Below are positions 15,560-49,291 of a stretch of 64,000 nucleotides of DNA, one piece after another (position 1 is the first letter of the stretch; every line of letters starts with the position of its first letter). Position numbers and translations under genes: made by a program. The notes under the pieces are model-generated. The model did not search any database. It worked only from the letters and a program-made list of their open reading frames with translations, and had not been told where the DNA came from. The stretch is from Geodia barretti. Taxonomy: Eukaryota. The stretch is taken from NCBI GenBank assembly GCA_030341885.1, contig CASHTH010004028.1, positions 18,733-82,732 on the forward strand. The letters run 5' to 3'.

Positions 15560-15565
15560 AATAAA
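15560..15565 (+). terminator. AATAAA polyadenylation signal about 160 nt downstream of the MED15 stop
   Basis: ctctaataaatttc follows the TGA at 15400-15402. Confidence 0.3.
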
Positions 15566-16029
15566 TTTCAATCTGACTGTCGAACTATAATGTAGAACAA
15601 GTGCTACACGTTGTTTTAGCGAGCCAATGGCAAGTATACATGTAGGTCAGCTGCTCATGAATAATAGTGCATGTGCGTTGTTAAAAAATGTGACAGCAAC
15701 ATTTTAAACCTGCAAGTGTGACAACGGTTTAGGGAAGCACGCCATAGACACAGCTTCTCAGGGACAATAGTGGATGTGCTGTGTTTAAAAAACCCACATG
15801 TGTAACTATATTCTACAGTTTTTGAAACCACTACATAGGTGCACTTATTTGAATTGCAACACTTGTGGAAGTATAATGTTGTACTGCTGACATAGTACTA
15901 CAGATCATGTGCCATGAGAGCAGTATAGGTGGTGTGATGAAAAAGGAAGAGCCTACTGCATTTTGCACAAATCACACAATACACAACTAAAACAATACCT
16001 TGAAAAACAAAAAAAATAAAGGGGGGGGG

Positions 16030-18088: not shown

Positions 18089-18188
18089 TATTTGTTTATG
18101 GTTGACGTAATGCCGAATAATCTTGCGCATGCGCACATGCAAAAGGCAGCTGAGAGAACAGGTCAATCACCGAACACTGACGCAGCAT

Positions 18189-23319: not shown

Positions 23320-26300
23320 CCGGATTATTGTGCGTCCTGATGCAGGGAGCTGACAGCGAAACCTCACATCGCGGGCAATGTCAGTGATATGGAAGTGGCC
23401 ATGTTGATCTACAATCGCTGGAAGGGCTACAAGACCTTTGACCGAGTGGAGCTGGCCAACTACACGGTCCTGCTGCAGTACCCAGGGAACAGCAGTAGTC
23501 CCAACAGACTGGAGCTGCGGGAGTCGGGGGGGAAGGTGGTCTACACTGCAGCTACCCGCCAGGAGAAACCTCTGCTGCCACAGGAGAGAGATCCCTCCGT
23601 CGCTCCTCCTTTTAATGCCTACTCTGGCACTGGGAACGTCTCTGTGAGGACAACCACTGGACCACATATCTTCACCTGTTACCATCTCTCTCTTTCTATT
23701 GGCAGGGTCCTCTGGTGTATGTTAACTATGGTAGACTGGAGGACTTTTACTATCTCAACACTACCCTCAATATCAGTCTGGACGGACACATCTGCATCAT
23801 ACGCTATGGAAAAATCTACCGTGGAGATAAGGTTACCCTTAATACTGAAAGAGTGCAAATTTTACCATCCAAATTGTCATGTCACTAATGGAGTTTCATT
23901 TGCTCTGTGCATACTATAAAACTAGCAAAGAATTTGGCTATTGGGATCACTGTGCCAATTTTTTCTAAGAAAAACATTTTGCTGCAAATGTTTACCAAAC
24001 TGTGCATAATGTTTCCCTTCAAAAGGTTTTCCCCATCTAGCTATTGAGTGTGTCCCATGTTGACCTGTAGGCCTACCTGGCAGAGCAGAGTGGTTGTATT
24101 GGAGTCATCATCTACTCTGACCCCGCGGATTATGCCCCCAGAGATGGTCCCCCTGGTCTTCCCCAACGGCACCAGTCTCCCACCCTCCGGGGTGCAACGA
24201 GGATCACTGTTCCAGAGAAACGGCGACCCCCTGACTCCGGGGGTCCCTGCAATTCCAGGGATATTCAGGAGAGACTATGAGGAAGATGTGGTGAAGAAAG
24301 GATACGCTCCCAGTATCCCAGTACAACCCATCTCTTATGGAGATGCCATCCACTTCATGAAGTTTGACAGATTAACTATAACATGTTGAATCTTCTACTA
24401 TAGCTCGAGATTTAGTGATGCAGAGAATTGTGCTATTGCTGTCTAGTGGTTGAGTGTTTCATGTGTATTGTTGCAGCCAACTGACTGAGTACCGAGCCCC
24501 TGTCAACTGGACTGGTCAGCTGAACATGTTCTACTACTGCATCCTCCAGTCACCCACCAACACCAAGTATGGAGGGAGGGAGGGGGGAAGAGAGGGGGGT
24601 TAAGTCTCTGTGCGTCTTCTGCAGTGAGATATATCTTGAAGTCAACAACTACCTGGTTCATAGGAACATCACTAATGTCATTGCTACAGTGTATGGATCA
24701 GTGGAGCCAGGTTAGTCACTGAACCATCTCTTTGCCTTCTGTGTCACGGTCTTTGCCTTAGACAAACTCCACACCGAATATGAAAGAACACTGTTGTAGC
24801 TATGTGCTCTGGGGCTATTTTCTTTTCCTTTGCCTGTTTGTCTGTCAGATCGCTACGTTCTGCTGGGTAACCACCACGATGCCTGGACATTTGGAGCAGT
24901 GGACCCAAACTCTGGGACTGCAGTACTCATGGAGCTGGCCAGAGCTCTCAGTGACCTCCGCAGCAAAGGTCAGAGCCCCCTGGACCGCAGTCACCAGACT
25001 GGGTGTCACGGTGAAGGTGCTCATCTCTCTCTCTCTGTCTGTCCCCAGACTGGAGACCAGGTCGAACCATTCTCCTCTGCAGTTGGGATGCAGAGGAATA
25101 TGGACTGATTGGATCCTACGAATGGACTGAGGTATCGATACATACTGTGGCACCACCACATGATGTGACCACTCAGACTTTCCTCTTTCTTCTCCTCTGA
25201 AGGAACATGCAAAGATCCTAGGAGCCAATGCTGTAGCCTACCTGAATGTGGATGTTGCCGTTGGTGGTAAAGCTAGTCTACAGCTAAAGATTTCTAGGCC
25301 ATCATAATTTTCTCTGCAAAATTTGTGGGTCGGGATAAACACCCAATTTTTCTCTGTATATCACAGGGGTATACTCTTTCAATGCTGCTGCCACCCCACT
25401 TCTCATCCAGCCTATCTACACTGCAACCAAAACAGTGAGAGTGCTTTTATTAATATGCTGTCTTATTGAGTTGTGTCTCTGTAGACCAAGTGCCCCAACA
25501 AAGGTTTTGCCACAGTCTATGACGAGTGGCTCCACTACCAACCAAACCCCACCAACAGCGCTCCTCAGTGAGTTGACTCTAGTCCTCCACTGTCTCCTGG
25601 TGACAGCTCCAGCCACTGTCTCCTCTCCTCTCCTCTACAGAGTCCCTGGTCTTGGCTCAGGCAGTGACTATACCCCCTTCCTACAAGGTTTTGGCATCAC
25701 CTGCTCTGACATGAACTACAGATACTTTGTAAGCTTCCCTCTCTTTCTTTCCCCTTTGATCTTCTAGTATATAACATGCTCTGAACCTTACGCACACACT
25801 AAAAATCAGTACACACTTCAGGAAAATTTGTGTTTCATTGCTTATTCTGCTCTCTCTCTCTCTGTATAGGACCCCGTAGGGTACCCAGTGTATCACTCAG
25901 TCCACGACAACTTCTTCTACGAGGCCAACCTGAGGACCCGTCCTTCTCCCACCACACAGCCGTGGGTCTGTGTGGGGTAAGGTGGCCCTCTCTCTTGCCA
26001 ACCTCCCCCGTCCTCCCTACGACCCCAGAGACTACTCCACTGCACTCACAAACATCATGGCGGGATTGGTGGAAGAGTATGGAGAGGTTCTGTCTTCCCA
26101 GAACATAAGTCTTGGTAGGTTCCTTCAGCCCTTTCTCTCTTTCTCCCCCTCTCTATTGATGAGTAATAATTTGATCCTCCCTAAATGGCTACTTTTATGA
26201 GAACGAAACTCATGAATGTAATTCGCTGATTTTCCTCATTTCCCCACTACCATTTTTCCTGTGTTCGACTTCCCAACAAGTTTTCCCTCTTTTTTGCCAC

Positions 26301-26960
26301 CCACACAATACCCATCCTCCAGATGACTTTCTCTATTATACAGATTACCTCAACAGCTCCATCAGAGAGTTCACGATGTCCGCCGAATGTCTGTGGGAGG
26401 AGTTACAGAAGGTGTCAGGTGACCCCAGTGACCTCAGTCGTGTCAGGAGACTCAACGATCAACTGATGCAGTTGGAGAGAGCCTTCATTGTACCAGAGGG
26501 TCTCCCTGGAAGACCTTACTACAAGTTAGAGATGGTTATAGACAGAGGTGGGAGAGCCTTTAGGGTCCAAAGAAAGTTGAGAGTCTATTACAAGAAAAAG
26601 GATATAATTATAGAAAAGGGCCATACGTACATACGTACATACGTACATACGGTGTCTCACGTATCATGGAATTTGCACACCATTTGAAAATTGTAGCACA
26701 CATGTTGTTGTGGGTGTATTAGGTATTGTGTGAATTTCCGTCTCCTATGCAGACATGTGGTTTATGCGCCCAGCTCAGTCAACCAGTACGGCAGCTCTCT
26801 GTTTCCCGGTGTGTCTGATGCCATCTTTGCGGCCATGGAGTGGGGTCGTAGCTGGGACCTTCTCAGAGAGCAGCTGGACCTGGTTCGGGTCCACATACTC
26901 TATGACTCTCAGATCATGACTCAAAGCCTTGACAACACAATAGCTTTTACAACAGTATAA
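22680..26960 (+). CDS. Glutamate carboxypeptidase II / NAALADase-like paralog B, 15 exons
   Basis: Exons 22680-23023, 23346-23643, 23706-23831, 24071-24361, 24477-24566, 24625-24710, 24849-24968, 25049-25131, 25203-25266, 25367-25434, 25485-25567, 25641-25728, 25870-26114, 26344-26524, 26753-26960. Phases are consistent except for single-nt frame breaks in exon 4 (a run of 5 C at about 24170) and exon 13. The first exon encodes ..[26 protein letters not shown] (TM helix) ..[17 protein letters not shown]. Confidence 0.8.
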
Positions 26961-27075
26961 TTTTGTTATGCTTAAATGCTGCGTCAGTGTTCGGTGATTG
27001 ACCTGTTCTCTCAGCTGCCTTTTGCATGTGCGCATGCGCAAGGTTATTCGGCATTACGTCACCCATAAACAAATA

Positions 27076-29142
27076 ATGGCGATGGCTTTCTTGTTCTCAC
27101 GTCGGCGTCGTTGCCTCGTTCCGGGCTTGTGTCTTCTTCTGTCTCTCCTACCATCAGCTATTCCAGGAGGCGAGTCCTCTCAAACGGCCGAAATCACCGT
27201 CCCTTGTGACGACGGCAAGGTGGGGCTACAGTAAAACATGATCGTAGGTTTGCCATTCTGCCCAATGAGCGTGCTTCACGTTGGTCCACTAGGTCGGTAA
27301 AGACATAGAGGACCTGAAACAGTGGACCTCCTGTTCGGGACAGCACTTCGAACCCCCGGAGGTACGGTAGAACCCCTCCAAAGCTATGTCCAGAAATAAG
27401 ATTAGCAAATCATGTTTTCGTATGCAGTTTGTACAGCCGTCTCAAAGCGAAGTTTGCTCTCCTACACTCCACGAAGTGAGTTCTACACTTCAGCACACGT
27501 GTGCAAAGCTTTTACCGTGTCATTCTCTCGCAGGCAAATTCCAAATGTACAGATGTTCATTTGACTTACACTGAACATCCACCTTCAAGGCAAGTGGAAG
27601 TTTTACTTATTTTTGCATTCTCTCATTATACTATTCCTCTTCTTCTAACTCCAGTGGAGACTATCGACCTCTGAGGCCAAAGTATGGGACATATGAATAT
27701 CTGCCACCTCAGAGATGGCTCTCTGCCCTCCAGGTATAGACATCTCTCTTTCTACAACTATAGGCTTTCTAGTGGGAAGAGAAAAACAATATCAGATAGC
27801 GTTAAACTGTGAATGTTTACTGAATGTATCCTACTATGACAGTATATGTGCTCTCCCTCCTATATACAGTACGGTGCGGTGGTATTCCTCTACCACCCAT
27901 GCACCCCTCCTGACCAGGTCTCCCAGTTGAAGCAGCTGGCTCGGAGCTGTCTGTGGCGCCATTTCGTGTCCCCTTACCCTCTCCTGGACTCTGAATGGGT
28001 TAGCCACACTTACCCTCGTTAGCTGGAGATTGGCAGGTGTCCAAAAGCTTGCTGCATCTTGTTTATGCTCAATCCATTTCTAGTACCATAGCAATAGTAA
28101 GGATAGATAATGGGCTGCTTTATTCCTTTAATAATGTAAAGATGCCGTTGCCTAACAAACAATTAGTGTGAATTTCTCCAAAGAGTCGAACTGTTGAAAG
28201 GTTGCTGGAGAATTATCATTTTTTTGTAGGGTGCAATATTTTCCCCTTGTTTGGGTGCTTCGGGGCTAAGAAATCGAACTTGGTTTCTGGTCAAAATCCA
28301 TGACATAGTTTTACTACTAATCTTCGACTATTTCTCCGCTGCAGCCAATGGCTGTTGTGTCTTGGGGGTGTGTCCTCCGAGTAAAGTGGGTGGAGTCGGA
28401 AGCAATCAAAAAATGGGTGGAGTCACATGCACTACGCACTCCTCAAACGGCAGAGTTCGCTAATGATGGCACCTACGATGAAGGTATATACTATTATGGT
28501 AGTACACTTGCTAATCGTCTCAATGTTTTCTGTGCCAATGTCTTCACCCTCACCAAGTTTCCCATGGTATATATAACACTCCTTGTCTTATAACCTTCCG
28601 TTGCAGGGTTGATTCAACCAGCAGACAAGGTGGAATTGAATGGAGACGAGGCTGTCTGTCCCTCACCTCCTCCTCCCACCACCATCCTCCCTTCCTCCAC
28701 CAACACACACACTAACACCACCAACACCAGCAAGCCTACCTGTCCCAACACTGCCACCTCTACCAATTCATCTCACAACAAAACAGACTCAGACTGTAGC
28801 CTCCCCCCCACTCCTACCTTCAACCCAGCCCCAGCTAGCAATCTCCCGCTCCACCACCATTTCGGCTACACCGTCCTGATGTGTGTTGCTGGAGCCGCGC
28901 TCCTACTTGTGATCCTCGTGTCTGCCTTGAATCTGTGCTGCTGCAGTGCAACTCGCCGGAGGAGACGGCGGGCCAGGTACAAGTCGGTGAGCAAGTTTTT
29001 CCCGTTCTCGTACGGGGAGCAGCTGGACGCCGATGGAGGGAGCGATGGAGTGAGCGTGGCTATTCCAGAGTACGGACTGCCCAAGAGTGGACGGGCTGAG
29101 AGGGAAATGCTACTAAATGATTCAGACGAAGATGAAATCTAG
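27076..29142 (+). CDS. Uncharacterised single-pass type I membrane protein, right-arm copy
   Basis: Mirror of 16030-18088(-). Exon 1 is 27076-27229 (signal peptide). The last exon 28609-29142 ends ..DSDEDEI. Confidence 0.5.
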
Positions 29143-29759
29143 CCCCCCTTATTTTTGTTTTTCAAGGTATTGTTTTAGTTGTGTATTGTGTGATTTGTGC
29201 AAAATGCAGTAGGCTCTTCCTTTTTCATCACACCACCTATACTGCTCTCATGGCACATGATCTGTAGTACTATGTCAGCAGTACAACATTATACTTCCAC
29301 AAGTTTCGAGTCAAGTCAGTGCACCTATGTAGTGGTTTCAAAAACTGTAGAATATAGTTACACATGTGGGTTTTTTAAACACAGCACATCCACTATTGTC
29401 CCTGAGAAGCTGTGTTCTATGGCGTGCTTCCCTAAACCGTTGTCACACTTGCAGGTTTAAAATGTTGCTGTCACATTTTTTAACAACGCACATGCACTAT
29501 TATTCATGAGCAGCTGACCTACATGTACTTGCCATTGGCTCGCTAAAACAACGTGTAGCACTTGTTCTACATTATAGTTCGACAGTCAGATTGAAATTTA
29601 TTAGAGGGGCAAACATGCATTATGCCAAATGAAGAGAAGAAAGGAGAGAGAGAGAAAAGAGTTCATGCGTATGGGAGTATATAATTACACAGGCATCAGG
29701 AGTGAAGGAGGTTGGGAGGGAAGGAAAATGAGGAGAAAGGGGAAGGAGGGGAATGAATG

Positions 29760-32700
29760 TCAGAACTGGGAAGAGAGGGCCTTGAGAAGGCTGGTCTCCC
29801 AGCTGGACAGCAGGAAGGAGAGGGTGTAGCTGTCACAGCAGCAGGCCAGGGTGTCCGCCAGAAGCTTCCCGACCTCCGAGAGGAGCGGGGTGGGGTCTCC
29901 TCCCCCGTACGACTCCAGGTCACACTCCGGGGAGTAGTCGGGGTACCCCGGAGGAATACGGACGGTTAGCGAGGGGACTTTGGGCAGGTCCTCATCCACT
30001 GTGTGAACAGAAATCAGAATCTTTACGATGGTATAATAATATAGTAGTGCACTTTTTTCGTTTTTGTTGGTCATAAAATTTGATTTTCGTCCTTTGTTGG
30101 TTGATATTCGTCTCTTGTTGGTCTAAGCACAAGCGCAAACAATGCAAATTGTAGTCTAGACGAACCTCAACTGTAGAAAATCAAAACGCAAGACCAACGA
30201 AAAAAACTGCGAGAAACAGAAACGAAAAGTGCACTGCTGGAACAAATTAATAGTTTTCCCATATTATGGGATACTCTGACATTATTATGTGCACACAACG
30301 AGGAGAAGGAGTAAAGAGGAGAGGGGGAGGAAGAGAAAAGAGGAGAGGGGGAGGAAGAGAAAAGAGAGAGGGGGAGGTAGAGAGAAGAGACGAGAGGGAG
30401 GAAGAGAAAAGAGGAGAGGAGGAAGAGAAAAGAGGCGTGGACTGACCGATGCTGCACTCTAGCATGGTCCCTCGGGTCTGCTCCTCCTGGGGGAGTGGGT
30501 GAACTTTGAACCCCACCAGATGGGCAATCTCTCTCCTCAGACAGAGAGATATTGCTGGCTCAACTGTGGGAGAGCAGAATAGTAGAGTGAACATCAATAA
30601 CAACCCAAGTAGCAAGAGGGGCATACTAGCAACACTATGAGCTTTTCTCAGACAAACTTTAGCATTAAATCGGTGGTATCACGGACCACGTTTTTGTCCA
30701 CAAACAGTACACGATGTATACACAACACAACACACCATTAAACCTGTAGTGTAATGTATCAACAAACCCTACCTCTATTGCACATCCTCTTGGAGGGAGG
30801 AAGACGGTCAGCGGGGAACGGATGTGAGCGGACAGTACATGTCTCTATGAGGTTCCCTAGTGTTGGGGTCGGTGAAGGAATCATTTTGAACTCTAGTAGC
30901 GACTGAGATTTTGGCTCCGGGAGGGGTTTGGTTGAGGGGTCGACGAGGGTGTGGTTCGCTGCGGACGAGGTCGCAGGGGGCGCGGGGGCGACGGAAGGGG
31001 GGTTGGAGGGAGGCGGCTGCGAAGAGGTGGAGTCCAGGTGTTCTCTCAGCTGCTGCTGCTCAAACATCTTCTCAAGGGCCGTCTTGCATTTTATGAGAGT
31101 CGGGAGAGGGACCCTGTGTGTCGCATTTTTGGTCATGGTTAGTTCGTGTACACTTAAATTCATGTTTGTTTACGCCTACTTGACAATGTAGCAAAATGCT
31201 AAGTTTAGAGGGGGCATTCTGTGGGTGTGGACTATTGTAAAGTTTCTTTTCGCCAGATATCCGTTCTTCTAAACGCCTCGCTCGACAGTAGCATGAACAT
31301 ACAGTAGTGAAATTCAGAAAAAGAAAGCAAATTTAAAAATATAAGGACAGAGAAAACGGAAGGAGAAGAGAGAGTGGTGAGAGGAGAAAGTCACCTCTTC
31401 TTGTCGTCCTGCAATAAACTGTGGAGGCTCTTGAGTTTCATATACTGCTCTGACTTGTGGGCGTCTTCACCCTCTTTCTTCAGTGTGCGGTTCATCATGC
31501 GAGTGAGGAGCGGGAGGTAGACCTGGAGCTCGTGGTGCGTCCGAAGGTACGCCTCGTTTTCTTCCGGAGTGACCGTGGAGTGGGCGGGGCTTCCGATGCT
31601 GGTTGCCGGGGAGGCAGGGAGGAGTGGAGTGGGAGGAGGGGCAGGCGATGGGACAGGCTGCGACTGGAAGATGACAGGTGAGTTCGTAATGGGATGATAA
31701 CTTACAAACACAGGGCAGAGAACAACCAGCTTCGCAACATGTTCTGATAATGAACGTAGTACAACAGCAAACAATACAATGATGCTATGCACTGATTGAG
31801 TTTTGCGCAGCCTGGCTTACATTCTTCCGTGCGCTTCTGCTAGCTTCAGTTATGATGCAGTAGTCTTGTGCCGGGCTGCGTTTGCATCGCCACACAGCCC
31901 CTTGCGCACATGCATACAACAAGAACTTGCATTAATTTCAATGGGTCAAAGTTAAACACCACAACACTGTTACCTAACCAATTGTCGTCTTGACTTATGA
32001 CAAATAATGTATTGTAATAGAAGTATGTTTTATACCTGTAGATAATTCATGGCAGTAGCTGAGGCTGAGGTGGAGGGAGGAGGGTGGGGGTGAGGGAGAG
32101 ATGACTGTGGCTGGGAGGAAGAGGAGGAGGGTGGAGCGGAGGAAGCGGGAGGGAGAGAGGGAGCATTGGACGAGGAGGTGGCGGCTGAGGGGTTGGAGAC
32201 TGCACTGCTGGAGGCTGGAGGCTGTGTGGGTGTGTGCGCACGTGCATGTGTGTGCACAAATAAACGAAGGGGTGGATAGCTACACAGGTGCACACAGCAG
32301 TCGCTGCAGCAAAAACAAAGCGCAACAGCATATACCATAGGTAAGCACACAAATCTAAAAGGACTTCACTTTATATGGTTTATGATCCATCTCTATTACA
32401 CAGCTTCAAGTAAGTCTGGTAGATTCTCAAAGTGCACTCCATTCTATATGATGCTCACCCCTACAGAGTCATTCTATATGATGCCCACCCCTACAGAGTC
32501 ATTCATGTGATTCTATATGATGCTCACCCCGACAGAGTCATATGGAGGTGCAGGCTGTCTTATCCCCCCGACGGAAGAAGCAGGGAGGTAGGAGGGGTTT
32601 GGGACCGCCATCACCGGCTGGACACTCCCACTGATGTCTGACGTAAACCCAGTCTGAACCTGCTGGACCATCGGTCCTCCGTACACTCCGCCCACCCTCC

Positions 32701-35700
32701 CCATCCCCGCCGGTATCCCTCCCCCCATCCCCATTCCCCCTCTCCCCATCGCCATCGCCATCGCCCCGGGCCCGCTGTGCTGCTGCATCATGCCTCCCCC
32801 GGCCATCCCCGGCATTCCGCGCCCCATCGGTCCCTGCTGGGGTCTCATTAGAGAGGGGTTGATTGAGGGTTGGCGCTGCGGTATCCCCATTCCGTGCATC
32901 TGGTTGGCTACAGACATCACTGGGTTGAAGTGTGGCTGATAGTTTACGTTCTGGAGAGAGAGAAAGGAGGAGGAAGGGAGGGGAAATATGGAGGGAGAGA
33001 CAAAAGGAAGGGAAAGAAATAAAGAGTGTGCGTGAGCAAAGAGAGACATGAAGTAGTTAGCGAGAAAGGTCTCTAGGAATGCAAGCCAAATAACCACAAC
33101 GCGCGTACTGTACATTCCGACCCATTGAACCCTTGCACCTGTTGGCATCCAAACATTGAAAGGACATCAATCGGGAAAAGGTACATGTAGTTCACTTGTT
33201 TGCCTTGCCTTGCCTTTCTACCTCGTTACCAAGTTGTTGAGACATGCTGTATATACCCCATAACTTGCACCCAAAACATATCTGGACGTTCAGCGCATTA
33301 CGCACTCATTCAACTGTGTTTCCTTCACAAAAATTGCTATTGTGCTGCAAGGTTTTTTATTATAAGGATGGTGAATTCACCTGTGGGTAGTTGTGTACAC
33401 TCATTGGGTGTTGGGCGTGTCCATATGGTCCACCGTGTACCATTCCCTGAGCAACCCCTGCCATCATTGGTCGTTGGGTGGGGTGCATTCCCGGTTGCAT
33501 TCCATGCTGCATTGACCCGCCCACTGTGCGGTGCATGTGGGGAGAATAGTGAGGGTGTTGGGTGGGGTGCATCTGCTGGGCGGTCCCTCCTCCCTGCTGG
33601 TAGGTCTGGTAGCTTCCTCCTCCGCCCGGCTGCTGCATCTGCTGCATGGGGCGAGTCATACCCATACCTGTACATAGAAGGAGGGGGAGAGAGAAATGTG
33701 GGAGTGGGAAGAGGGAGAGAGGGGGGAGAGAGAAATGTGGGAGTGGGAAGAGGGAGAGAGGAGGGAGATAGGGGGAGAAGGGGGAGAGAGAAATGAGGAG
33801 TGTTCATAGTGGAGATAGGGGAGTAGAGCCATGAGGGAGTGGGACAGTGTGAGAGAAGCGAGCGGAAAGCAGGAAGAAACAGTGAAACGAGTGTGGAGGG
33901 CAGACGGGAAGACAGAGAGAGAGGAAGGTGGAATGCTCTAATACGTGTTTCGAAGAGACTGGAATGCTCAGGGGGAGGGGTGAGCATGTTTGTAAGTGAG
34001 TCAGACCTGAAAGGAAGTGAATACTGGCAGAACATCCACAACAAAAGGAAAACATATCGGGCAACATGGGAAGAACAGAGACTGTTCCTAGAAATGCGTG
34101 CAAGCACCACACTTGTCTCAATGACCACCTACCATTGATGTAGCACAGTATATACTACATGCATAGCTGCAATATGATATTCACACTATTCCAAACAGTC
34201 AAATTTATGGGTTGGAGAATGCACTTTTCTCTCAAGTTTTCAGCATTATCCAGTGCTATGCTATTGTTCTGGGTCTCAAGTGAAGATAGCAACTTTGAAC
34301 AAAGATTAACTATTACGTGCAACTGTTTTGCATGTCTTGTAAGTACTTTTTGAGAGAGAGCCAAAACTCTATTTAGATTTCACGTTATTGAGAGCGTCCC
34401 CGCATGCCTCCTTTAAAAAATGGGTTAAGACTGGGACCCCGATACTATTATGTAATACCATGTAAAGTACCTGCAGGGTTGACTCCAGCCATGTTAGAGC
34501 CCGAGACGGAGTAGGAGACGCCGCCACTCAACTGAGACTGCTGCTGTTGGAGGTTAGACGACTGAGGGAGCGATTGATTTGACTGCTGGTGTTGCTGCTG
34601 CGGGTTCTGAGCTGCTAGGTCTGTTGGTGGTGGTGGTGGAGAAGAAGGAGGAGGATGGAACGAAGATAGTGAGTGAGGATGGAGAGTGAGTGAATGGGCA
34701 CGGGAAGAGGAGAAAGGGGATAGGAGAAGCAGAGGATGAGCGAGGGAGAAAGTATAATACAAAGTAGAGAGAGGCAAAGACGAGGGAGAAAATGGCAGGT
34801 GCACCCATGCAGGCAAGGAAGCACAGCGCAAAATGTGGTCTGACAGCAAACCCAACCACCCATGCAACCATCCACACCACCACCACTTGGAAAAACCAAC
34901 TGAACTTTGACCCGACGATAGTAACCCACTACCGCAGGGGCCTCACCAGATCACCAGCTACGCACTGCCAACAGCATGCACTATATACACACATCTGCCA
35001 CAGTTCAGGGTCTAAGGCTTACTCGTTAGGTATAGGGTGTACCCCCACATGAAAGATACCCTTTTCACTGCCTAAGGAGGTAAATGCAATCAACCTTTCG
35101 GTATCACTCAGCCAAAACAACCTCCCTCTCTCTCTTCCCATTTTCCTTCTGCAGAAACACATACAGTACATTGCACATCAACAGGTAGCATTTTACGCCG
35201 CTTTTCGTAAGTGCAAAACTATCACACCTTCAAAAAAGGCAGAAAGACAAAAGAATATCTAAAATGTGGAAAGCAGCAACCCGTGAAAAATTTCTCAGAA
35301 AAAATTTTTAGCATGCCACTGAAGTTGCATGTACACATATACACCTGGGCAGATATCTCACAGTAACACCATGGCAACCTTCCAGGAAACCTATACAGCC
35401 CCCTCCGCCCACATCAAAGAGGTGCGAAGATATTAATGCCTACCAACAACACTACTCTGTGGCTGGCCAAAGAAAATTGGGGGGACTTTGGACGGAAACT
35501 AAGGTTTATGTGCTCCAGGAAACCTATACAGCCCACATCAAAGAGGTGCGAAGATATTAACAACACTGCTTTGTGGCTGGCCAAAGAAAATTGGGGGAAC
35601 TTTGGACGGGAAAACTAATGTTTATGTACTTACTTTGAAGGCTCTTTCTCTTTGTTAGCATAAAGAGAATTCGCTGCAGCTTGGCCGTGTAGTCATCCTG

Positions 35701-37427
35701 AGGGGGGGGGCAGGCAGCAAACACACTAGACGTGTGAACATAGTATGTAGTATATAGTATGTGGTAGTTTGTAGCGAGAGAGCTACAGCAGCACCTAGCG
35801 TGTATGGCAATTTGTATACAACAGTGATGTCATGTGACACGTATGAAGGTCATGGCACTCTGCTGGCTCACGCGTTAACAGTGGGCGCCACTTCAGAGTA
35901 TGTCTTATACAGAAATGTATACACGCTAAGCACTACTTTAAACGGGTCCAAAGACCCCCGAGGGTCAACTTACGTGGCTAATATGCAACGCATACGCACG
36001 TAATATGTGCCCCAAAGAGTACTACGCCAGAAACTAGTGTGGGCACCGGCAAAGGAGGTATATACATAAGAGAGGTGAAGTGTTTGAATAAATGAGGTGT
36101 CTAGCCACTAATAAGAGAAACACTGCATTGTATATGTAGCTGACCCTCAAGCAATGACCTATAATTAACCATTCAGCTACCTTCTACCTCTCCTATGATC
36201 ATCGTACTGTGTACATCTGTGTGTGTGTGTGTGTGTGTGTGTGTCTGTAGTACATTCACCACACTAGTCTGCAGAGTACAGAACAATAAAGTTCAGATAT
36301 TGATAGCAACTGATTGCACTGTCAATCTTGCAGACTGATTGCAAAAGAAACTGTCCTACATACCTGCTCTCTGGTTACTATAATTATAGCAAGCATTATC
36401 CTATGATCTGTGATATATAGCAGATGCATGAAGGTGCACTGAAAAACAATGGAGCTCCTCTCTCAGTAATTTCGGTTACTTGCCAATTATACACCAAGCA
36501 TGTTATACTCTCACACACATGCACATTCACACGACGACGTGGCGAACAGGAAACGCCTTCACAGCCTGAGAAATTCTCACTGTTACATTGCACGACAGGG
36601 CGCTTCTGCAGCAAGGCACAAGGAACGCGCTGTGCAAGATAAGCCGTGTTTAGTAGTCCTATGAATTCACAAACGCCACACCTAGCTCTTTTATTATACA
36701 CCCAGAATCGCGCGCGTCTTAGCTAGCTGCTGCATGTTGCTGCAGAGTGTTAGCTGCGCCGGAGAGAGAACGGCTCATTACCGAGTTTCTCGACTGGTCG
36801 AAGAGATTATTCTCCACGTCCGTGGGGTTCTGTAGGCTCGCCGGCGTGGATCCGGGGGTACCGGGGTAGTTCCGGATCGCCTCCTCCCTGCAGAGTGACA
36901 GACAGCACAGAGACTCTCGCTCGTGCAAAGACTAATCGCGCGACCGATCAATTAGCGGTGAACTTTTTAAGCCCTTGCACTGTTTGTGCGCATGCGCAGA
37001 GTGTAACTACACACCCACGCGGCGCGCGCGACGGCCACAAAACTCGTACACACCCCCGATCGACCCGCCCCATGTTGTTGTCCTCACACTTATTTGAACA
37101 CTAGTCCCCCTGCAACAGTTTTTCAGGCCATTATACAGAGAAAGGCTCTATCAATTCCCTTATCTGAGCGAATATTGGCGGTTTAGTTTTATCGTCACTA
37201 AAAAGGAATCAGGTGTTTATGGGGCAGTGAAAACATTTCCCGCCAGTCGAGAGCAACACAAGTTGGTACCTAAATTCCATTACCAAGCATGATGCTTCGC
37301 AAAGCCGCGCGCTAGATTGAAACTTCGCAAACGGTGGGCATCAATTAAAGTGTACTCACAGTTGAGAGAGCGTCTGCCTGCGCAGCTCTTGCGGGACTCT
37401 GTCCGGCGGCAGTCCTTCAGTGGCCAT
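29760..37427 (-). CDS. MED15: Mediator complex subunit 15, right-arm copy; more intact than the left copy, with the C-terminus ..CCDSYTLSFLLSSWETSLLKALSSQF matching the conserved MED15 end
   Basis: Mirror of 7779-15402. ORFs 29760-30074(-), 30759-31163(-), 31391-31792(-), 32513-33148(-) and 33360-33665(-) are in-frame exon readings. The KIX frame EEAIRNYPGTPGSTPASLQNPTDVENNLFDQSRNS is intact here. Confidence 0.7.
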
Positions 37428-37596
37428 CTTCTAACACCTAACATAAACTCTCTTCAACGCACGAGCAAGCAACACGCACTACGCGCAGACAGGAGACGCG
37501 ACGATTACAGGAAATTCTACATTAACGCAGTGTGCGCAAGAAAACCAATTAGCTCGCGCACGCGCATAAAATGGGTTGATTACTAATCACACCTCA

Positions 37597-39489
37597 TTAC
37601 AAGTGACTTGATACACATGACGTTTCTGATTCCCTCCAGCTATACCACCAGCTCTCATCATGATCATTCTGTCTCCAGCCTTGGACGTAACGCTCCACAG
37701 TCCCCAGAGTCCCACTCCCGACACACATGTCAATGACAGGTCTGAGAACAGTCGAACTTTGCGGCAGGGCGACCGAAAACAACGGTGTGGCTTCAAACCC
37801 AACGAAAGGGAGTCTCCGACGATAGAAATCCATCGCTGATTTTGCGAGTGCCATGAGAGAGGGTGGTGGGAGACAATGGTAGTTTATGGCCGTACCCACA
37901 AGTTCCACAACGTGGAAAAGGTTGCAGAGGGAATGACACTGGTGCAGAAGATTTTCACCGTCGCCGAGAAAGCTGGCAATCTCAGCCTCGCTCGTCACCT
38001 TGGCTGCAATCAGGAACACCCTGAGATCCAGCCTCAACTTATCAACCCCAATCTGGGCCAGGGTTTGCAGCAACCTACTGGGTAAGAGAAGGAGTTGGAA
38101 CTTCGGAGCAAGTACCTGCCGCTCGGCGTCTGAATTGCAGCTTAGGAGCTCGCGCAAGAGTTTGGCCAAGGGGGATCTGCTAGTCTCGCGAAATGTCACA
38201 TTGCGCACCCTTCCAAGTAAAAACGCCTTGAAGATTGCTCCCAGGGTGGCTTCTAGATCTTCCGGGCTCCGAACATCTTTTAGAAAAAGCCAGAGGTTTT
38301 CTGTGAAGTCGAGATTTTCCCTCTGCTGGAAAACGGTGTTCTCGAGGGATGGCGAGACAACGTTGACTTGCAGCGTGTGTGACAGCGGAGAGTCAATCGC
38401 CTCCAGGAAATCATCCACTCTGTTAATGAGCAAAGGTTCCTCTCGTTTCGTAAGCACCTCCTCCCCTTCTTCCTCTGGGAAATCGCCCCACCATTCCCTC
38501 CCATCGCACACCGCCTCACACACCCCGACAAGAGTCTGCAGCTCTGAAAACGTCGAGATAGTGGCCTGAAGATTCCCAGGCTCCACCGCAATATGGAGCA
38601 CACCCTCCGTGCCAAACACGGGTGGTGGAGAGAGAAAGGTTTCCGGGTTGTCCCAAGAAAATTCCACCATCATCCCTGCCTCGCAACCAGTTGAGCAAAT
38701 CTCAAAAGACGTGATGGCATACCTGGCAAACGCATTTCCTTGTAAGTCGCCCGGTGTAATTTTCATGCCGTCCCTCTTTGCTCCAGCCTCTCCCGCCCCT
38801 CTCTCTCGCACACAGTAAACCCTCCTCCTTTCAGGCTCATGTGTGCATCCTAGCCCCACAATATCTTCCTGGACAGCTCCTTCGGTGTGTGTACAAGGTA
38901 CCCAAAGGGCCGGTAAGGTCCCCGATTCCTGCAATCTACTCCCAACGAGGTAATAGGAGGCAAAAGCTCGAGCAAGGTCGAGTGAAAGTGGAGCGAGTCC
39001 ACCGAGATTAGCTTGTCTGACAACAGACTGTGACTCTTCTGGGTGGAACGGGATTTCTTGTTTTAGGTACACCCGTTTTCGGAACAGCTTCGAACCAAGA
39101 AAAATCGCTCTTTTCTCTGAAACTTGAACAGGATCCTGTTTATTTCGTCCAACCTCTTTTCTTCCCTCTTTCCTTTCGCGACGGGAGTCCTCAACGAGAA
39201 ATGAATTAGAAAACTGGTCAAGAATTGGCCTCAGTTCCGGGGACTCATCTTCTTCCTTCTCCCTATCTTGTTGGTGGTGTGGAGATCCCAGCACCACAGT
39301 GGGGCAGGGGAGGGGACCAGTTATCTCGAGAATGGGGACGAACAGTGGAGGTAGGAGGGTGGCAGAAATAGCCACGTTTCTCTCGCCAATTTTCAGCTCG
39401 TAGTCGAAAGACCCTTTTTGGGACCTGCTCTTTGATGTGCACTCGAGAAGAAAGGTAGTGAAAGTCTCAGCAAGAGCGGTTATATCCAT
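37597..39489 (-). CDS. ZWILCH: ZWILCH (kinetochore RZZ complex subunit) homolog, right-arm copy, intact intronless ORF of 630 codons from MDITALAETF
   Basis: A single 679-codon open frame, 37597-39636, with the likely start Met at 39489. It carries conserved Zwilch blocks LPALWVPC, NLDFTENLWLFLK..DLEATLGAIFKAFLLG and LLLPSRLLQTLAQIGVDKLRLDLRVFLIAAKV. Confidence 0.75.
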   Translation of the reverse strand: MDITALAETFTTFLLECTSKSRSQKGSFDYELKIGERNVAISATLLPPLFVPILEITGPLPCPTVVLGSPHHQQDREKEEDESPELRPILDQFSNSFLVEDSRRERKEGRKEVGRNKQDPVQVSEKRAIFLGSKLFRKRVYLKQEIPFHPEESQSVVRQANLGGLAPLSLDLARAFASYYLVGSRLQESGTLPALWVPCTHTEGAVQEDIVGLGCTHEPERRRVYCVRERGAGEAGAKRDGMKITPGDLQGNAFARYAITSFEICSTGCEAGMMVEFSWDNPETFLSPPPVFGTEGVLHIAVEPGNLQATISTFSELQTLVGVCEAVCDGREWWGDFPEEEGEEVLTKREEPLLINRVDDFLEAIDSPLSHTLQVNVVSPSLENTVFQQRENLDFTENLWLFLKDVRSPEDLEATLGAIFKAFLLGRVRNVTFRETSRSPLAKLLRELLSCNSDAERQVLAPKFQLLLLPSRLLQTLAQIGVDKLRLDLRVFLIAAKVTSEAEIASFLGDGENLLHQCHSLCNLFHVVELVGTAINYHCLPPPSLMALAKSAMDFYRRRLPFVGFEATPLFSVALPQSSTVLRPVIDMCVGSGTLGTVERYVQGWRQNDHDESWWYSWRESETSCVSSHL

Positions 39490-39825
39490 CTCTCCGCCAC
39501 TCTCTCTAGCTCTAGCATGCTTTTTGCGATGCGCGCGCATGTGCTTTCGCACCAAACTCGCGCCAAATTCTCTAGCAGGCACATGACTCGCTCCACCAAT
39601 CAGATTGTGACAAATCAGCACGTTTGCATCATGCAAGTTTCGTCATCCCCGGACCGACCGCGACCGAGCAGCAAAACAAAGAAGACTACAAAAGGCTGGA
39701 AGATCGGTGGCTCCCTAGCCGTCCTCGGAGGCAGATGTCCTGAAATGGAGGCATAGCATAGAAGAAAGTAGCTAACAAAAAACAATGAAAACCCTCTGTG
39801 AAAAACCTCACCCTGTGGTCGAATC

Positions 39826-41230
39826 ATGGAGGATCAAGCTGAAATGTACAAATCCAAGGCCGGTGTCGCCGCTGCGGCTGCGCTGACGAAGCTAACTCCT
39901 GAACTACTCCTACTTTGTCTACGGCTCCTGGCCAAGAACGGCGCTGCGAGGAAAACACCGTGTGCGGTGGTTCAGCCGAGACCTCACGATCTACCGCCGC
40001 AGCAAGCTGGCTCTCCGGACAGTGCTGTTCAGACCGCTGAGGAGCGGCATCGGGGAGCCCTCCTCTGTCCCTCGCTCGAACAAATCACACAGGTTTCCAC
40101 GCTACAGCGGGAGGAAGAGGAAGAGGGGAGAGAGTGAGGAGCTGACGCATGAGTCAGAGAGAGGGAGAAAAGGTGTGTTGTCATAGTCTCCGGCTCCGGT
40201 AAATCACACTTTGCGTGTTCTCTTTGGTGGACACAGATAAACTGATGAACAGGCATAGCAGCTCAGAACGCCAGAGCACCGTAGGAAAACTATGTTGAGG
40301 CAACTTGGCAGAGAGAGTGCAGAACTTGACGCCAAGTATGTACGTTCTGTAGTACTTGGCAAGCATGTCGAAAGGTACACTTTCGCATGTGTGAGGATAA
40401 TATGATGTTTCACGTGTGCGCATTACAGAATGAGAGCTCCAGCAGGAAATACCTGGCCTCAGACAGAAACAGATGTGATGAAACAGAACTCTGGATGATT
40501 CAGCTGTCCAGCAGCAGTCACACCACACCACCTCCACGCTCCACCTCAGCCAATAGTAGTAACGGCAGCTCACTCAAGTTGTCAGAGAGGACATCCTCGG
40601 ATATCGCGGTCAGCAGGACCTTTCACTCTCTGCAGCAGAAGCGGATACTGGGGATCTCTTTGCTCGAGTCCCATGGTGACAGTGAGTGAGCTCAGAGCCT
40701 TCGTCCTTGTACCATTTTGAGTCACTTTCTTTGTGTCTATAGTTTGATCTCTTTGTCAGTTTCATCACCTGCTGCAAGATTACTCCTGGCATGACATCAT
40801 CGCATCAGGTGGATCAGCACTGGCGCTGATGTCGACTTGGTTCCAGTCACATGACCTGGCCAACCAGGGGGACCAATCAGGGGCCAATTGTGGTGGGGGA
40901 ACCACCCAATCCAACTGGAACCCGATAGCCATATTCTGAACCCCATGCCCCTAGCGCTACTGACCGCCGCCACATGTTCGCTCATCAATCCAGTGACAGG
41001 TTTGTCCCGATTTCGGCCGTTCCATTTCCGCCTCAATACCGAGAGTCTACTGCACCGCTTAGTCCCTGTTAGTATTGACTCTGCTGTTTAATGATTGTCT
41101 GCTGTAGCCAACTTCTCAGAGCATGACAGTTTCAGAGCTGGAAATGATGGCTGTCTCCCTTCTCTCTCCGTTGGCAGTGATTCCAAGCTTGACCTCCAGA
41201 CTATTTGACCTTGTTGAATCGTGTCATGCG
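39826..41230 (+). pseudogene. XBP1: XBP1, right-arm copy; exon 1, the bZIP exon and the C-terminal frame each contain several indels relative to the left copy
   Basis: ORFs 39826-40137 and 39962-40186 are frame-shifted pieces of the MEDQAEMYKSK... exon 1. The bZIP exon at about 40240-40335 reads through stop codons. The stop of the C-terminal frame is at 41228-41230. Confidence 0.45.
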
Positions 41231-41415
41231 GCTGCTTGAGACGCTTATACATAAGTAATATTCACAAGACTGTGTTTCACTTCCAATTTTTTGTGTTTTT
41301 CATTACCGGGCTTTGTATTATCATTATTGAAAAGAAATTGACATAACCTGCTGATTATAACGAAAGACAGTAGTGATCATGCATTTAGACAGGACATATA
41401 AACACTGGAAATTTG

Positions 41416-43232
41416 CTATGCCTTGGCCGTGGTCTCTGACTTGGCGTTCTTTTTCTTCTTCGACTTTCCAGCCTTGACCAGAGGCAAGTTGGGCAGCTTG
41501 AAGTGTGCTCTGCAGAAAGACAAAGTAAAGTGATCAGCACCACACTACTTCTCTATACTTACTGGCACATGGAGCAGATCGGAGTGAATTGACAGAAAAC
41601 TGCAATCAACATTCAATTATACAGGTAAGTATAATTATGTGACACGAATAGAAAATGGCAGGTAAATTGAAGGGCACACCCACTAGAGAGACAGACAGAG
41701 CAGACATGGCCGACGTCCACCAGTCGATGGTGGCAGAAACAAGAGGCATGGTAGTCCACCTTTACCGCTGATGGCAGCATGAGTTTATCTCTGCTGGTCT
41801 CATCCGGTAGAAACGTCCACTACAATCAAACAGAAATTCACTCACATTACGGTGAGGCTATGCCACAGCATTCATATTATAGCTACTCTAATGTAGCCAT
41901 TTTGGATATTATCCCCTCTTACGGAGAAAAACTTACTATCAGAAACTGCAGTAAGCCTGCAGGCTCTGGAGTTTTTATATAAATACACCTGTGATATCTG
42001 AAGCCTGGAAAAATAGAGAGACAATGAAAACCTATGTAATGGGAGGAGTTCTCTATAATTATATACTTGCTGTAGAAATCCTGAGTCTTGCCATAAGACG
42101 CACGAGTCGATCACTATTTCTGTGTGCGAAAAAGACACAGAATTTACCGATGCAGTCCAATACGTATAGGTGGGCGACCAACATGTTTTGGGCAGCAAAG
42201 ATGCAGTTCATTACAGGTACATACTGTGACGCGGTGTCTTGCGATGACATTATTACCTGCAGAAAGGCTCCACACATTTGATAGACAATTGCTACATTCA
42301 AAGTAACTTACTAGTATGCGTGAGTTGACTTTGGTTCCTAGTGGTGCCTCCCTACAACGCCTCTGGATGTCTTCGCCAAAAATTAAGTCTGAATCACTAC
42401 CTAGGTTCTATTTCTTGCACAGATATATATTTTTCCTCATAGATTATTAGTCTGAATCACTAAACAGATATATATATTTTTCCTCCCTGACGGGGTCAAA
42501 CTATAACAGTAAACTCTCTGTACGATGGAACTTTATCAACGTCTGCATTGAGTGTGGTGGGGATACAGCAGAGACATTTACTAAGTGCTCCCGATAGCGC
42601 TGAAGTACTGTGAACAGGGTGACCTGCAAGAAATTTAGACAAAATAAACTAATCGACAAACAAGATCTGCCTGAAAGCAACTATATATCTACCCAGCAAG
42701 TGTCAGGCACACTACATAAGAAAATGCATGGCAAAGTCCAAAGGCTCACTAGCAGTTTCGGTCACAGTCTTGCGAATCTCTTCAGTCAGGACTCGATTCA
42801 TGTGGACCAGAGGCTCGTACTTTCCACTTGTGGTCTCCTCTGTCTCTTGGAGCCCGGCCTCCTCTCTCCCTGCCACTGGGTACACCATCCGACTGCAGCA
42901 AACACACACACAACACAGCTAATGAGGCAGCCTTTTGGTCTCACCTCCCTCCCTGATGACACAGGCAGACTCCGACGCTGTTTGTCTGCTGCAGAAGTAG
43001 GTAGGAGTTGAGAAAGGTGGTCACGTTATCCAGACACTGGGCCACGCTCAGCTGCACACACGAAAAGCACAGACACACTGCGTGTGTGACGACATTTGGG
43101 CACTTTATCCACCTGCTGCGCGGGGTTCTCCAGCTGGAGGCTGCGCGAGAAGGAGTCGGAGAGGTCGAGAAGGGTCACGAGCAGGTTGGCCTCTCTCTGC
43201 ACCCCAGACGACGTCTCAGGGCCTGCTGCCAT
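41416..43232 (-). CDS. GTF2H3: GTF2H3 (TFIIH p34), right-arm copy; exon 1 intact (MAAGPETSSGVQREANLLVTLLDLSDSFSRSLQLENPAQQ)
   Basis: Mirror of 1978-3804. The stop is a TAG complement at 41416-41418. ORFs 42610-43011(+) and 42059-42301(-) are antisense or read-through frames across these exons. Confidence 0.75.
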
Positions 43233-43920
43233 CGACCCAGCATTGTGCATACGACGACACGTGGGTTTCAGCTTACCTGGCCCCGCCCCATAATCTGTCC
43301 CCGCCCCCTTGTCGCTTGTATCCACGCCCACCGGAAGTACAAGGAGGGCGTATCAGGGGCGGTTTATGCGCAAGCGCGTACACGAAGTCTGCTACCGACC
43401 GCGCGACCGACCGACCGACCGACCGACCGCCCGACCGCCCGCCGTTACGTTGCTGTGTCATCCCTACTCGTCTGTACTGTCGGGCAGTAATCTGCAGTGG
43501 AGAACTCTTGGTTTCAACTCCTGGACTTGAGAAATATCTTCTGTTGTTGGTGAGAACTTGCAACATCTGTTTTTCCCATCCTACACGTTGCTAGCTACAA
43601 CCACCCGCGAAATCAGGAAATCGCGTTGTGCAGGCACGCGAACGCATAGTCTCGCTAGCCAGACTCCCCCGAGAGAGTCTGGCTAGCGAGAATACCTCCC
43701 GCATGCCGTAAAATTCGCCCCCTAATCCTGCACGACGGGAGCACATAGTATCTCCTCCCCACACGATGAGCTATGCTCTGAGTCATTCAACCGTGCAACG
43801 CCAGGCAGAACACCTCCGAAATATGCCTGACCTCCTCCCCTTTCTTCTTTCTCTCTTTCTTCCTCTCTCTCTCTCTCTTTCTGTGACTCTGTGGGCTAGC
43901 AAGTGGAGAACTCAGCCAGC
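43233..43920. promoter_or_regulatory. Bidirectional promoter between GTF2H3 (minus) and MVP (plus), right arm; carries a (CGAC)n expansion at 43386-43432 that is absent from the left arm, and a copy of the 17-bp-stem hairpin at about 43661-43705
   Basis: Divergent ATGs at 43232 and 43921. GC boxes present. Mirror of 1328-1977. Confidence 0.5.
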
Positions 43921-46900
43921 ATGGACAGATCAAAGAAAGACGAGGGGAAGAGCATCTACCGCATCCCTCCCTACTACTACATACATGTCCTGGACCAGAA
44001 CAGCAACGTGACCAAGTTGGTGGTGGGACCACACACCTTCATCAGACAAGACAACGAGAAGGTATAATATAGCTACATCTGAACAAGCGAGATCGAGATA
44101 GTTGAACATGTAGCTGAGAGAGAGGGAAAGAGAGTGCAGGTGTATGTTCCCAGGCCTTCCGTTACATTGAGCGTCATTTGTTTGTAATATTGTGGGTAAA
44201 TATATACACGTTCCCTTTAGTGACTGCGAGTAATGCTAAACCACATTCCCCAGTACAGAACCACACATTTTCAGGATTATACTGCATCCCATATGCACGC
44301 CATACACTGTGGAGCAGTAATAGCATTCACAGACCTCTGCACACGAGCCCTCCCACTCTGTAGAGGGTAAAGTTGATACATGAGCTGCTGTGTTGCGTCT
44401 GGAGGATGAATCTGGTTTTGTTGGGCATTACCCATGACGAGGGTTCGGATAGCTCTGTAAGGGCAGTTAGCAAAGGTCATCACTCACTGATGAGTTCCTA
44501 TCATTGTGTGTGTATATTGCTCATGCCAAGATATGCAACGAGGCATGCCATAACCATATGTACATGCCTACTAGCTCTGATCTGTACGTACATTATTTTG
44601 CTCACTTAAAGCGCTGGTTCGCAATACTCTGCTGTGCTGTCGCATTTTATGGCTTTTCAAGTTGTCGTACCTGCTGAAAATCCTGGCAAGTCACGCCGAG
44701 CGCATTATCACGAAATTGAAAACCTGTTTGTCATAAACTAATCACTTTCACATAACTTCCGCGGAGTTTTATGAAATGGGGACGGTGCCTATTGTTACAT
44801 CTATGCTGCCACATAATGCTATCGCGACCACATTCAAAACTGAAAACACTCTGTAATTTTGCCAAACTAAGATGGACTATTCAGGTATGCAGTGTAGTAT
44901 ACATTTTCTGAGTGTGTGTTGTTCCCCATCTCGCAGGTGATAGTTGCGACCAGAGAAGATGATATGTGGTTCCCCGAGGCAACGACTGCGTGGTGGAGGA
45001 ACCGGCCATGAAGACAAGGACGGCGAACGCGATTGTTCGATACACACGGACAGGTAAGATTCACCCCCATTCACTGGCGACGAGGTCTGCTCATTGAGCC
45101 ATTGTACAGTAGGACCTGAGCTGTAGGTTAATGGTGGATGTAGAGCGTCACATGGAGGTACGTGTTCCTGCTGTGTATGGGTCAGGGCTGTCTGAATAGG
45201 CTAATAGCCCTCCGTTCCGTCATGCATGAAGAAGCGTTCAGTTCTAGGTGCACCACGGTGTGAATAATGTACACGCTGGTCCATATGTGAAAAGATTTTA
45301 AAAACGGAGATAATGTGTGAAAACGATAACTTGAGCGTATGTGAAAGATTTCGATTGGCAGACGGGAATCGCTCCATCTCTGAACATTAACACAGCGAGT
45401 TTGTGTATACATTCTCAACCTCAAGCGCCTCCCTGTACATTGGCGATCACATGGATCTATTGTACATCTATATGATAATAGATACACTTCTCCCTCTCCA
45501 GATAAAGCTGCGCCACGCAGATCAGGAGATACGGGTGGCACAGGACCGTTTCCTCTCTTCCCGGGAGAGGTCCTGAAGCAGATAGTCACCCAGCTGAAGG
45601 TGGTCCCGGCCAACACTGCACTGCGCCTGCGAGCCGTCCTCGACTTTGTGGAGGAAGGAGGGTCCAAGAGGACAGCTGGGGACGAGTGGCTGTTTGAGGG
45701 CCCAGGTTAGCTCTCACCCACTCTCTGGTGGAGGACTATTATGTTGCCGGAGCCTGTGACCTGACACAGTGTGATGTAGCATGAATTAGAGGGTATCGGG
45801 CAATGCAAGTGTGTGTGAAATCAACAAGCTGGGAGTTCTATAGTTGTGACAGGCTAGCTTCACAAGCTGGGAGCTCTATAGTTGTGACAAGCTAGCTCAC
45901 TGTGGCTTTACTTCCTGCGTTTACAGACCACATCATTTTCATGCATTTTGGTGTGGGTATAATTAAAATACCAGCTTCCCTTCAGCCGCTGCTGTGTCAT
46001 TGTTAGAAGACTTCCCCAAATTTTACCATGCCAACTCATGCTGCTGTGACTATTTTTAGAATGCCCCGTTCTTACATCACTGTATCTACTATTTACATAT
46101 AATGTTTCTGCATATCCTCTGTACAATAATTATGTGTAGTGTGAAACCAATATAGAAAGTGTGCTGGTTTGTGAAGTGTCCTTATTTCGGGGTGTGTTTA
46201 TTAGCAGGGTTTCCCCACTCTGTAGGGACCTACATTCCATACAAGGAGGTGGTTGTCGAGGAGACGATCAGGGCCACAGTCATCAAACCAAACCAGGCCA
46301 TTAAACTGAGGGCCCGCAAGGAGACTCTGGTACACTTCACGAACAGCTATATACCTCTTTCCTCTCTCTTCCAGTATTTCCCTTCTCAAATATTCCCTGC
46401 CGGTTAATGATGAATTTTTCAACTCTCCTCGTTTTCCGTTTTCAACTGCCTTATAACCCTTTCTGTCCTTATTCCACTTGCTATCTCTGCCCCTCTCTCT
46501 CCTCCTCCTCCTGTTCCACTTCTCCTTGTCAGGATCGAGACGGGAACCCCAGAGTGACGGGAGAAGAGTGGCTGGTCAAGAAGATTGGGGCCTACCTTCC
46601 TGGAGCCTATGAGGAGGTGGTGGAGCTGGTGGATGCCTATGTCCTCACTGAGAAGGTCAGTCAGTCACTTAGTAAGTGATCCACTGTGTTTGATACGTAT
46701 ATAAGTCAGGCCAGCTATGCTAAAGTTCTGAAGTTTAGTTGGAGACATTGAACTGGGCAGAGTTCCCTCAGTGTTTCTTTACTGCAACAGTTGGAGTGTG
46801 GTGCAAATTGCTCATACTGCTCAACAAAATCTTAGCAGAGCGAGTTGTTTTTTTTCGTGATGTGGTGCTGAATGTATATATAGGCATGATGGTATGTGGT

Positions 46901-49251: not shown

Positions 49252-49291
<40 letters not shown>

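Follow-up and report, generated by a model that had tools for sequence, protein, structure and literature searches.

Frame-breaking lesions in the first exons of an MVP gene within a large inverted duplication most likely reflect sequence quality

Introduction

The stretch of animal genomic DNA analysed here (the window, 64,000 nt) contains a major vault protein (MVP) gene whose first exons occur twice, once in each arm of a large inverted repeat. An earlier note on this DNA had pointed out that neither arm carries both N-terminal exons in an intact state, and had described exon 2 as scrambled in the copy that is joined to exons 3-15. Taken at face value, such an arrangement would suggest that, in this animal, the N-terminus of a particle protein of deep conservation has been remodelled or lost. 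The question raised by the locus is whether these lesions belong to the genome of the organism or to its sequence as assembled. Conclusions are based on alignments to database and PDB sequences and on the window sequence itself; human MVP, MED15 and FOLH1 sequences served for exon location only.

Results

Geometry of the inverted repeat

Self-comparison of the window revealed one very large inverted repeat, in which positions 4-21772 match positions 45275-23323. Arm identity is ~94.7% overall as read and ~98.5% in the clean blocks described below, the true value being masked by sequence errors. Arms of at least 21.8 kb are arranged around a short spacer:

4..21772: left repeat arm, incomplete at the start of the window
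21773..23322: spacer of the inverted repeat, 1550 nt
23323..45275: right repeat arm, whose outer end as seen mirrors window position 4

The right arm contains MVP exons 1 and 2, exons 3-15 follow beyond 45275, and the gene had been described as straddling the boundary of the palindrome. This description is unproven. The arm alignment ends at 45275 because its left-arm partner has reached the window edge; similarity does not decay toward 45275, and the outer boundary of the palindrome does not come into view. Because the arm alignment begins at window position 4, position 45275 is simply the mirror image of the window start, and the boundary placed there is a product of the window cut.

MVP exons 1 to 3 and their arm copies

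The N-terminal part of MVP is represented by five sequences, two of them in the left arm:

43921..44061, + strand: MVP exon 1 in the right arm, intact, 47 codons from ATG to GT donor (by translation)
1192..1327, - strand: copy of MVP exon 1 in the left arm, frameshifted and running into a stop (by translation and alignment)
44937..45053, + strand: MVP exon 2 in the right arm, 117 nt as read, with an in-frame stop (by translation)
208..321, - strand: copy of MVP exon 2 in the left arm, a clean 114 nt with AG/GT splice sites (by translation)
45502..45705, + strand: MVP exon 3, 204 nt as read, whose sole lesion is a CCC run that is one C short

Translation reproduced the earlier account of these exons, i.e., an open exon 1 and a 117-nt exon 2 with a stop on the right, and a frameshifted exon 1 that reaches a stop and a clean 114-nt exon 2 on the left. 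The statement that neither arm has both N-terminal exons intact is correct as read. Exon 3 had been reported to lack one C at the conserved DPFPL motif, and the frame indeed changes there, at ~45546, giving GACCGTTTCC where GACCCGTTTCC is expected. Right-arm exon 1 agrees in alignment with conserved MVP N-termini and with PDB 3gf5, and the left-arm copy is separated from it by 13 events (6 indels and 7 substitutions). The two copies of exon 2 likewise differ by 13 events (7 indels and 6 substitutions). The left one translates as VIVGPEKMIVVPPRHYCVVENPAMKDKDGKPVFDTHGQ and thereby encodes the conserved VPPRHYC segment.

In the as-read right-arm MVP transcript, exon 2 introduces a stop and exon 3 a frameshift, which leaves no uninterrupted open reading frame (ORF). 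Skipping of exon 2 had been proposed as frame-preserving, and the length of the intact copy (114 nt) is in fact a multiple of three. As a rescue of the as-read gene, however, exon-2 skipping was rejected, because exon 3 is likewise out of frame.

MVP exons 4 to 15 and the reconstructed protein

The remaining exons, all on the + strand, were placed as follows:

46226-46329, + strand: MVP exon 4
46533-46655, + strand: MVP exon 5
46933-47058, + strand: MVP exon 6
47241-47477, + strand: MVP exon 7
47807-47956, + strand: MVP exon 8
48226-48355, + strand: MVP exon 9
48655-48946, + strand: MVP exon 10 (acceptor ambiguous, 48643-48670)
49090-49234, + strand: MVP exon 11
49443-49654, + strand: MVP exon 12
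50014-50257, + strand: MVP exon 13
50527-50715, + strand: MVP exon 14
51193-51330, + strand: MVP exon 15, including the stop

All intron junctions from exon 3 through exon 15 are GT-AG and in phase, and translation of the 2090 coding nt of exons 4-15 yielded no stops and no frameshifts. Lesions are thus distributed along MVP as 13 events in exon 1, 13 in exon 2, one in exon 3 and none in exons 4-15.

A mosaic MVP was assembled by taking exon 1 from the right arm and exon 2 from the left, putting back the missing C of exon 3, and adding exons 4-15. It is complete, has 849 aa, and matches the Pfam families Vault (four stretches), Vault_2, Vault_3, Vault_4, and MVP_shoulder. The alignment of the mosaic to residues 9-185 of 3gf5 is gap-free, and the mosaic retains every N-terminal residue that is invariant in a 10-species alignment. 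The colinear N-terminal repeats R1-R2, including VPPRHYC, are present only when the left-arm exon 2 is used. Homology to database MVPs is far beyond chance (E 1e-185). A large protein search for an MVP of the same species that could serve as a reference returned none, the best database MVP being 80% identical. Exons 13-15 align to the coiled-coil region (cap helix) of human MVP.

Repeats were observed within and downstream of the gene. Intron 6 of MVP contains a 27-nt tandem repeat (47112-47233, 4.5 copies, 96% matches), which produces a long spurious ORF reaching into exon 7. Downstream of MVP lie three minisatellite arrays whose period is 61-64 nt (57260-58314, 59517-60004, and 61466-61890). 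Unit-to-unit indels amount to 8% in the array at 57260-58314 and are absent from the array at 61466-61890; the former array might be another noisy sequence patch.

Distribution and spectrum of differences between the arms

Differences between the arms fall into noisy blocks with sharp edges (0-1400, 3800-5200, and 7400-10200 in left-arm coordinates), with 8.4 events per 100 bp as compared to 1.5 in the remaining arm. A further segment at left 18400-18800, with 35 events per 100 bp, was considered as hyper-diverged sequence and rejected, as it reflects misalignment around a ~90-bp insertion. The lesions of MVP exons 1 and 2 are located in the first of the noisy blocks:

4..1350 of the left arm, mirrored at ~43900-45275: noisy block A, ~10 events per 100 bp, with ~1 beyond

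The kinds of events also differ between the two classes of sequence. Indels and substitutions stand at 302 : 170 in noisy blocks (64% indels) and at 106 : 129 in clean blocks (Fisher p 2.5e-6), and 225 of the 302 noisy-block indels are of 1 bp. Transitions and transversions stand at 51 : 119 and 71 : 58, respectively (Fisher p 1.7e-5). The transition fraction is accordingly 0.30 in noisy and 0.55 in clean blocks, the former showing no difference from the random value of 1/3 (p 0.37). The proportion of 1-bp indels that lengthen or shorten a run of identical bases is 56% in noisy blocks and 74% in clean blocks.

Within block A, events per 100 bp number 11.4 in exon 2, 9.6 in exon 1, 12.0 in intron 1, and 8.8 in the visible part of intron 2, i.e., coding sequence is as damaged as intron. 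The damage ends sharply ~50 nt upstream of the MVP start codon, at an edge unrelated to gene structure, and over 2.4 kb upstream of this codon the rate is 1.0 events per 100 bp. The damaged arm switches within the block, from the right arm for exon 2 to the left arm for exon 1. This assignment applies to the exons; for the non-coding parts it would require a third copy.

Other genes in the arms

Frame-breaking differences are also found in three further genes of the arms. A GCPII/NAALAD-like exon shifts frame in both arms, at ~21003 in the left (missing A) and at ~24153 in the right (extra G in a G run), and a left/right mosaic of this exon has an intact frame and matches GCPII. A ZWILCH-like gene is open in one arm and broken in the other:

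37597-39636, - strand: ZWILCH-like ORF in the right arm, 679 aa, continuous and apparently intronless (Pfam Zwilch)
5691-7398, + strand: ZWILCH copy in the left arm, broken by many 1-bp indels

The two ZWILCH copies are separated by about twenty 1-bp indels, among them an additional T at each of positions 6553, 6606, and 6669, all within 120 nt. The last MED15 exon is open in the right arm (29825), whereas an insertion of AA in the left arm (15335) removes the conserved C-terminal end. This insertion is the only arm difference in ~350 nt and could be either a real arm difference or an error. Because the GCPII-like, ZWILCH, and MED15 exons show similar lesions, the broken-exon picture is a general property of the region and not peculiar to MVP. 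Indels are far fewer in the unique MVP exons than in the coding sequence of the arms.

The arms also encode a predicted single-pass membrane protein:

28609-29142, + strand: ORF in the right arm
16030-16554, - strand: ORF in the left arm

This ORF of 174-177 aa is open in both arms and had no match in Pfam; the differences between its two versions include a 12-nt insertion derived from (GT)n.

The spacer and the identity of the arms

Two first exons of GCPII/NAALAD-like type occupy the spacer:

~22459 to 22118, - strand: GCPII/NAALAD-like first exon, with one frameshift
22680-23026, + strand: GCPII/NAALAD-like first exon

They are first exons of an M28 peptidase gene, lie head to head ~220 nt apart, and each encodes a cytoplasmic tail and a transmembrane segment followed by the motif ...WLD.E....NI.ENLR. 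The two are 42% identical as protein (E 5e-18) and unalignable as DNA. Both have a GT donor in a shared phase and, together with exon 2 of their own arm, align across the junction to GCPII. The arms start ~22 nt upstream of the acceptor of GCPII-like exon 2, and their first 273 nt are 100% identical. Between the head-to-head first exons, at 22556-22565, lies GCGCATGCGC, which resembles an NRF1-type site.

The arms differ in length at (GA)n in the MVP promoter (12 nt), (GGTC)n (29 nt), poly-T (13 nt), (GT)n in an ORF (12 nt), and a 24-nt minisatellite. The right arm additionally has a ~90-bp insertion with a (TACG/TATG)n microsatellite (~26570-26680, compared to left ~18480), located in the intron that adjoins the TFR-dimer-domain exon. 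A purine-rich minisatellite of 24-nt (or 47-nt) units is longer in the right arm (30302-30435) than in the left (14812-14857), and the arm alignment breaks into two pieces at this point. Because these genuine length polymorphisms separate the arms, the arms are two distinct DNA sequences, as opposed to the same molecule sequenced a second time. A single-molecule fold-back was accordingly rejected, on the grounds of these polymorphisms and of the two dissimilar first exons that the 1550-nt spacer contains. The arms are, at the same time, much more alike than the duplication age suggested by the diverged spacer first exons. The layout is probably that of two real head-to-head paralogues whose bodies were homogenised or recently re-duplicated, and gene conversion may be the cause of the likeness.

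Discussion

Origin of the MVP lesions

We consider it highly probable that the MVP lesions are residual consensus errors and that the gene is an ordinary one, expected to be intact in the organism. The locus would comprise a single 15-exon MVP gene on the + strand (43921-51330), with its first two exons within the large inverted duplication, and right exon 2, left exon 1, and the missing C of exon 3 would all be errors left in the consensus of a noisy-read assembly. The duplicated region would have been poorly polished, with stretches of approximately raw-read quality (~10% error, mostly 1-bp indels) alternating with cleaner ones and falling independently in the two arms. The organism's exon 2 at 44937-45053 would be expected to follow the reading of the left copy and thus to be intact, as judged from the sequence of that copy.

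The lesions are attributed to technical error because 1-bp indels dominate, the transition fraction is random, exons are as affected as introns, block edges are sharp, and exons 4-15 are clean. A view of the scrambled exon as biological rearrangement or decay does not agree with this signature. Lesions of a real pseudogene would be gene-wide, and its divergence dominated by substitutions and biased to transitions, neither of which was found; the observed mixture of mostly 1-bp indels with about one third transitions, at a density independent of coding status, is that of noisy reads. The lesion in exon 3, a shortened CCC run, suggests an error of the homopolymer type. The indel excess in the arms over the unique MVP exons would fit a failure of polishing where reads lack unique placement. 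Failed polishing in near-identical arms may be the cause, and the sequencing technology that we suppose is likewise deduced from the error pattern. Some points speak against polishing errors. The block pattern could also be produced by patchy gene conversion between old copies, a real loss could be thought not absurd in a protein that is dispensable in several lineages, and the switch of the noisy arm within block A is without a mechanistic account.

Alternative readings

The lesions may be technical and the palindrome an assembly artefact as well, namely an inverted false duplication that represents the other haplotype or a chimeric join in reverse orientation. There would then be a single MVP 5' end, left exon 2 would be a second reading of the same exon, and the sole disagreement with the reading preferred here would concern copy number. 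We regard this as possible but rather unlikely. It is consistent with a left arm that reaches the window edge as it would at a contig end, with errors that are far denser in the arms than in MVP exons 4-15, which are unique, and with a clean-block divergence of ~1% plus microsatellite and VNTR length changes, as would be seen between two haplotypes of a heterozygous invertebrate; artificial palindromes, like false duplications, are moreover documented errors of assemblies (PMC9516828, PMC6218980). The 1.55-kb spacer argues against it, with its two different GCPII-like first exons on opposite strands that are 42% identical and each spliceable in a shared phase to exon 2 of its own arm, and the fold-back of a single molecule predicts neither a spacer nor length polymorphisms between arms. 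That the inverted duplication is real, with arms that are recent or were kept alike by gene conversion, appears reasonably likely.

Readings in which the lesions are part of the genome fare much worse. Both MVP 5' copies could be decaying pseudogenes, or the gene could survive by skipping exon 2 or by using another start. As read, exons 1 and 2 are both open in neither arm, the length of the clean exon 2 is a multiple of three, and several lineages of animals and fungi have lost MVP, all of which would accord with this reading. We nevertheless hold it to be very improbable. Exons 4-15 have no lesions in 2090 nt as against 13 events in the 114 nt of exon 2, and because exons 4-15 are so constrained, these mostly frame-breaking events are not attributable to decay. 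Skipping of exon 2 leaves the frameshift of exon 3, the spectrum is dominated by indels with a random transition fraction, the damage comes to an end sharply ~50 nt before the start codon, the next 2.4 kb upstream being spared, and ZWILCH, MED15, and the GCPII-like gene have similar lesions. Similarly little credit is due to the idea that the noisy blocks represent old, unconverted divergence of ancient paralogous arms and the clean blocks recent gene-conversion tracts, so that right exon 2 and left exon 1 would be truly diverged paralogous sequence. The sharp block boundaries look like edges of conversion tracts, the central part of the duplication is old, as the spacer indicates, and gene conversion between arms has been well described for large palindromes (PMC8327919, PMC8600007). 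Old divergence would, however, be expected to be substitution-dominated and transition-biased, whereas 64% indels and a transition fraction of 0.30 were observed; the truly old first exons of the spacer keep their frames and protein similarity, unlike the noisy blocks, whose exons appear without constraint in the damaged arm. A further, very improbable reading is that block-wise, indel-rich damage is real and that palindrome-linked error-prone repair hit different MVP and GCPII-like exons in each arm. If true, function would require exon skipping, a mosaic drawn from both copies, or continual repair of one copy from the other by arm-to-arm conversion.

Comparison with known systems

Residual indel errors in long-read assemblies are known to fragment genes (PMC12007338, PMC9262707). 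The lesions described here resemble them in consisting of frameshifts and early stops caused by 1-bp indels, in including a homopolymer change (CCC to CC in exon 3), and in vanishing once an independent copy is consulted. Unlike errors that are evenly spread over a long-read assembly, they occur in kilobase blocks near raw-read quality inside a duplicated region. The MVP gene itself is similar to animal MVP, as represented by the rat and mouse vault structures (PDB 4V60, 4HL8, 3GF5), in its Vault repeats, shoulder, C-terminal coiled-coil, length of 849 aa, and 15-exon structure; it is unlike animal MVP in that lesions of exons 2 and 3 interrupt its as-read frame.

The palindromes of primate X and Y chromosomes have large, near-identical arms, a unique spacer, and arm-to-arm gene conversion (PMC8327919, PMC8600007). 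The inverted duplication shares with them arms of more than 20 kb that carry protein-coding genes, a short unique spacer, and an arm similarity far greater than the age of the duplication as judged by the spacer first exons. It differs in its arm identity, which exceeds 99% in the primate palindromes and is 94.7% as read and 98.5% in clean blocks here, and conversion between its arms is a deduction from their likeness. Assemblies can also contain false duplications or artificial palindromes (PMC9516828; Pacasus, PMC6218980). An inverted duplicate that reaches the sequence edge and is locally of poor quality inside is a feature in common with these; the present structure is set apart from fold-back artefacts by the real length polymorphisms of the arms and by a spacer of 1.55 kb in which two distinct first exons are both spliceable.

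Implications

In this region MVP, ZWILCH, MED15, and the GCPII-like gene will be missed or wrongly annotated by gene predictors. Positions 1-45600 should be flagged for read-level polishing and copy-number validation, and copy-number claims for the genes of the palindrome require prior validation at the level of reads. The MVP gene in the window is most likely an ordinary member of a well-known family, the broken N-terminal exons reflecting sequence quality and not biology. The biologically real part may be the gene-carrying palindrome with its bidirectional spacer, which is a known kind of structure and of modest interest.
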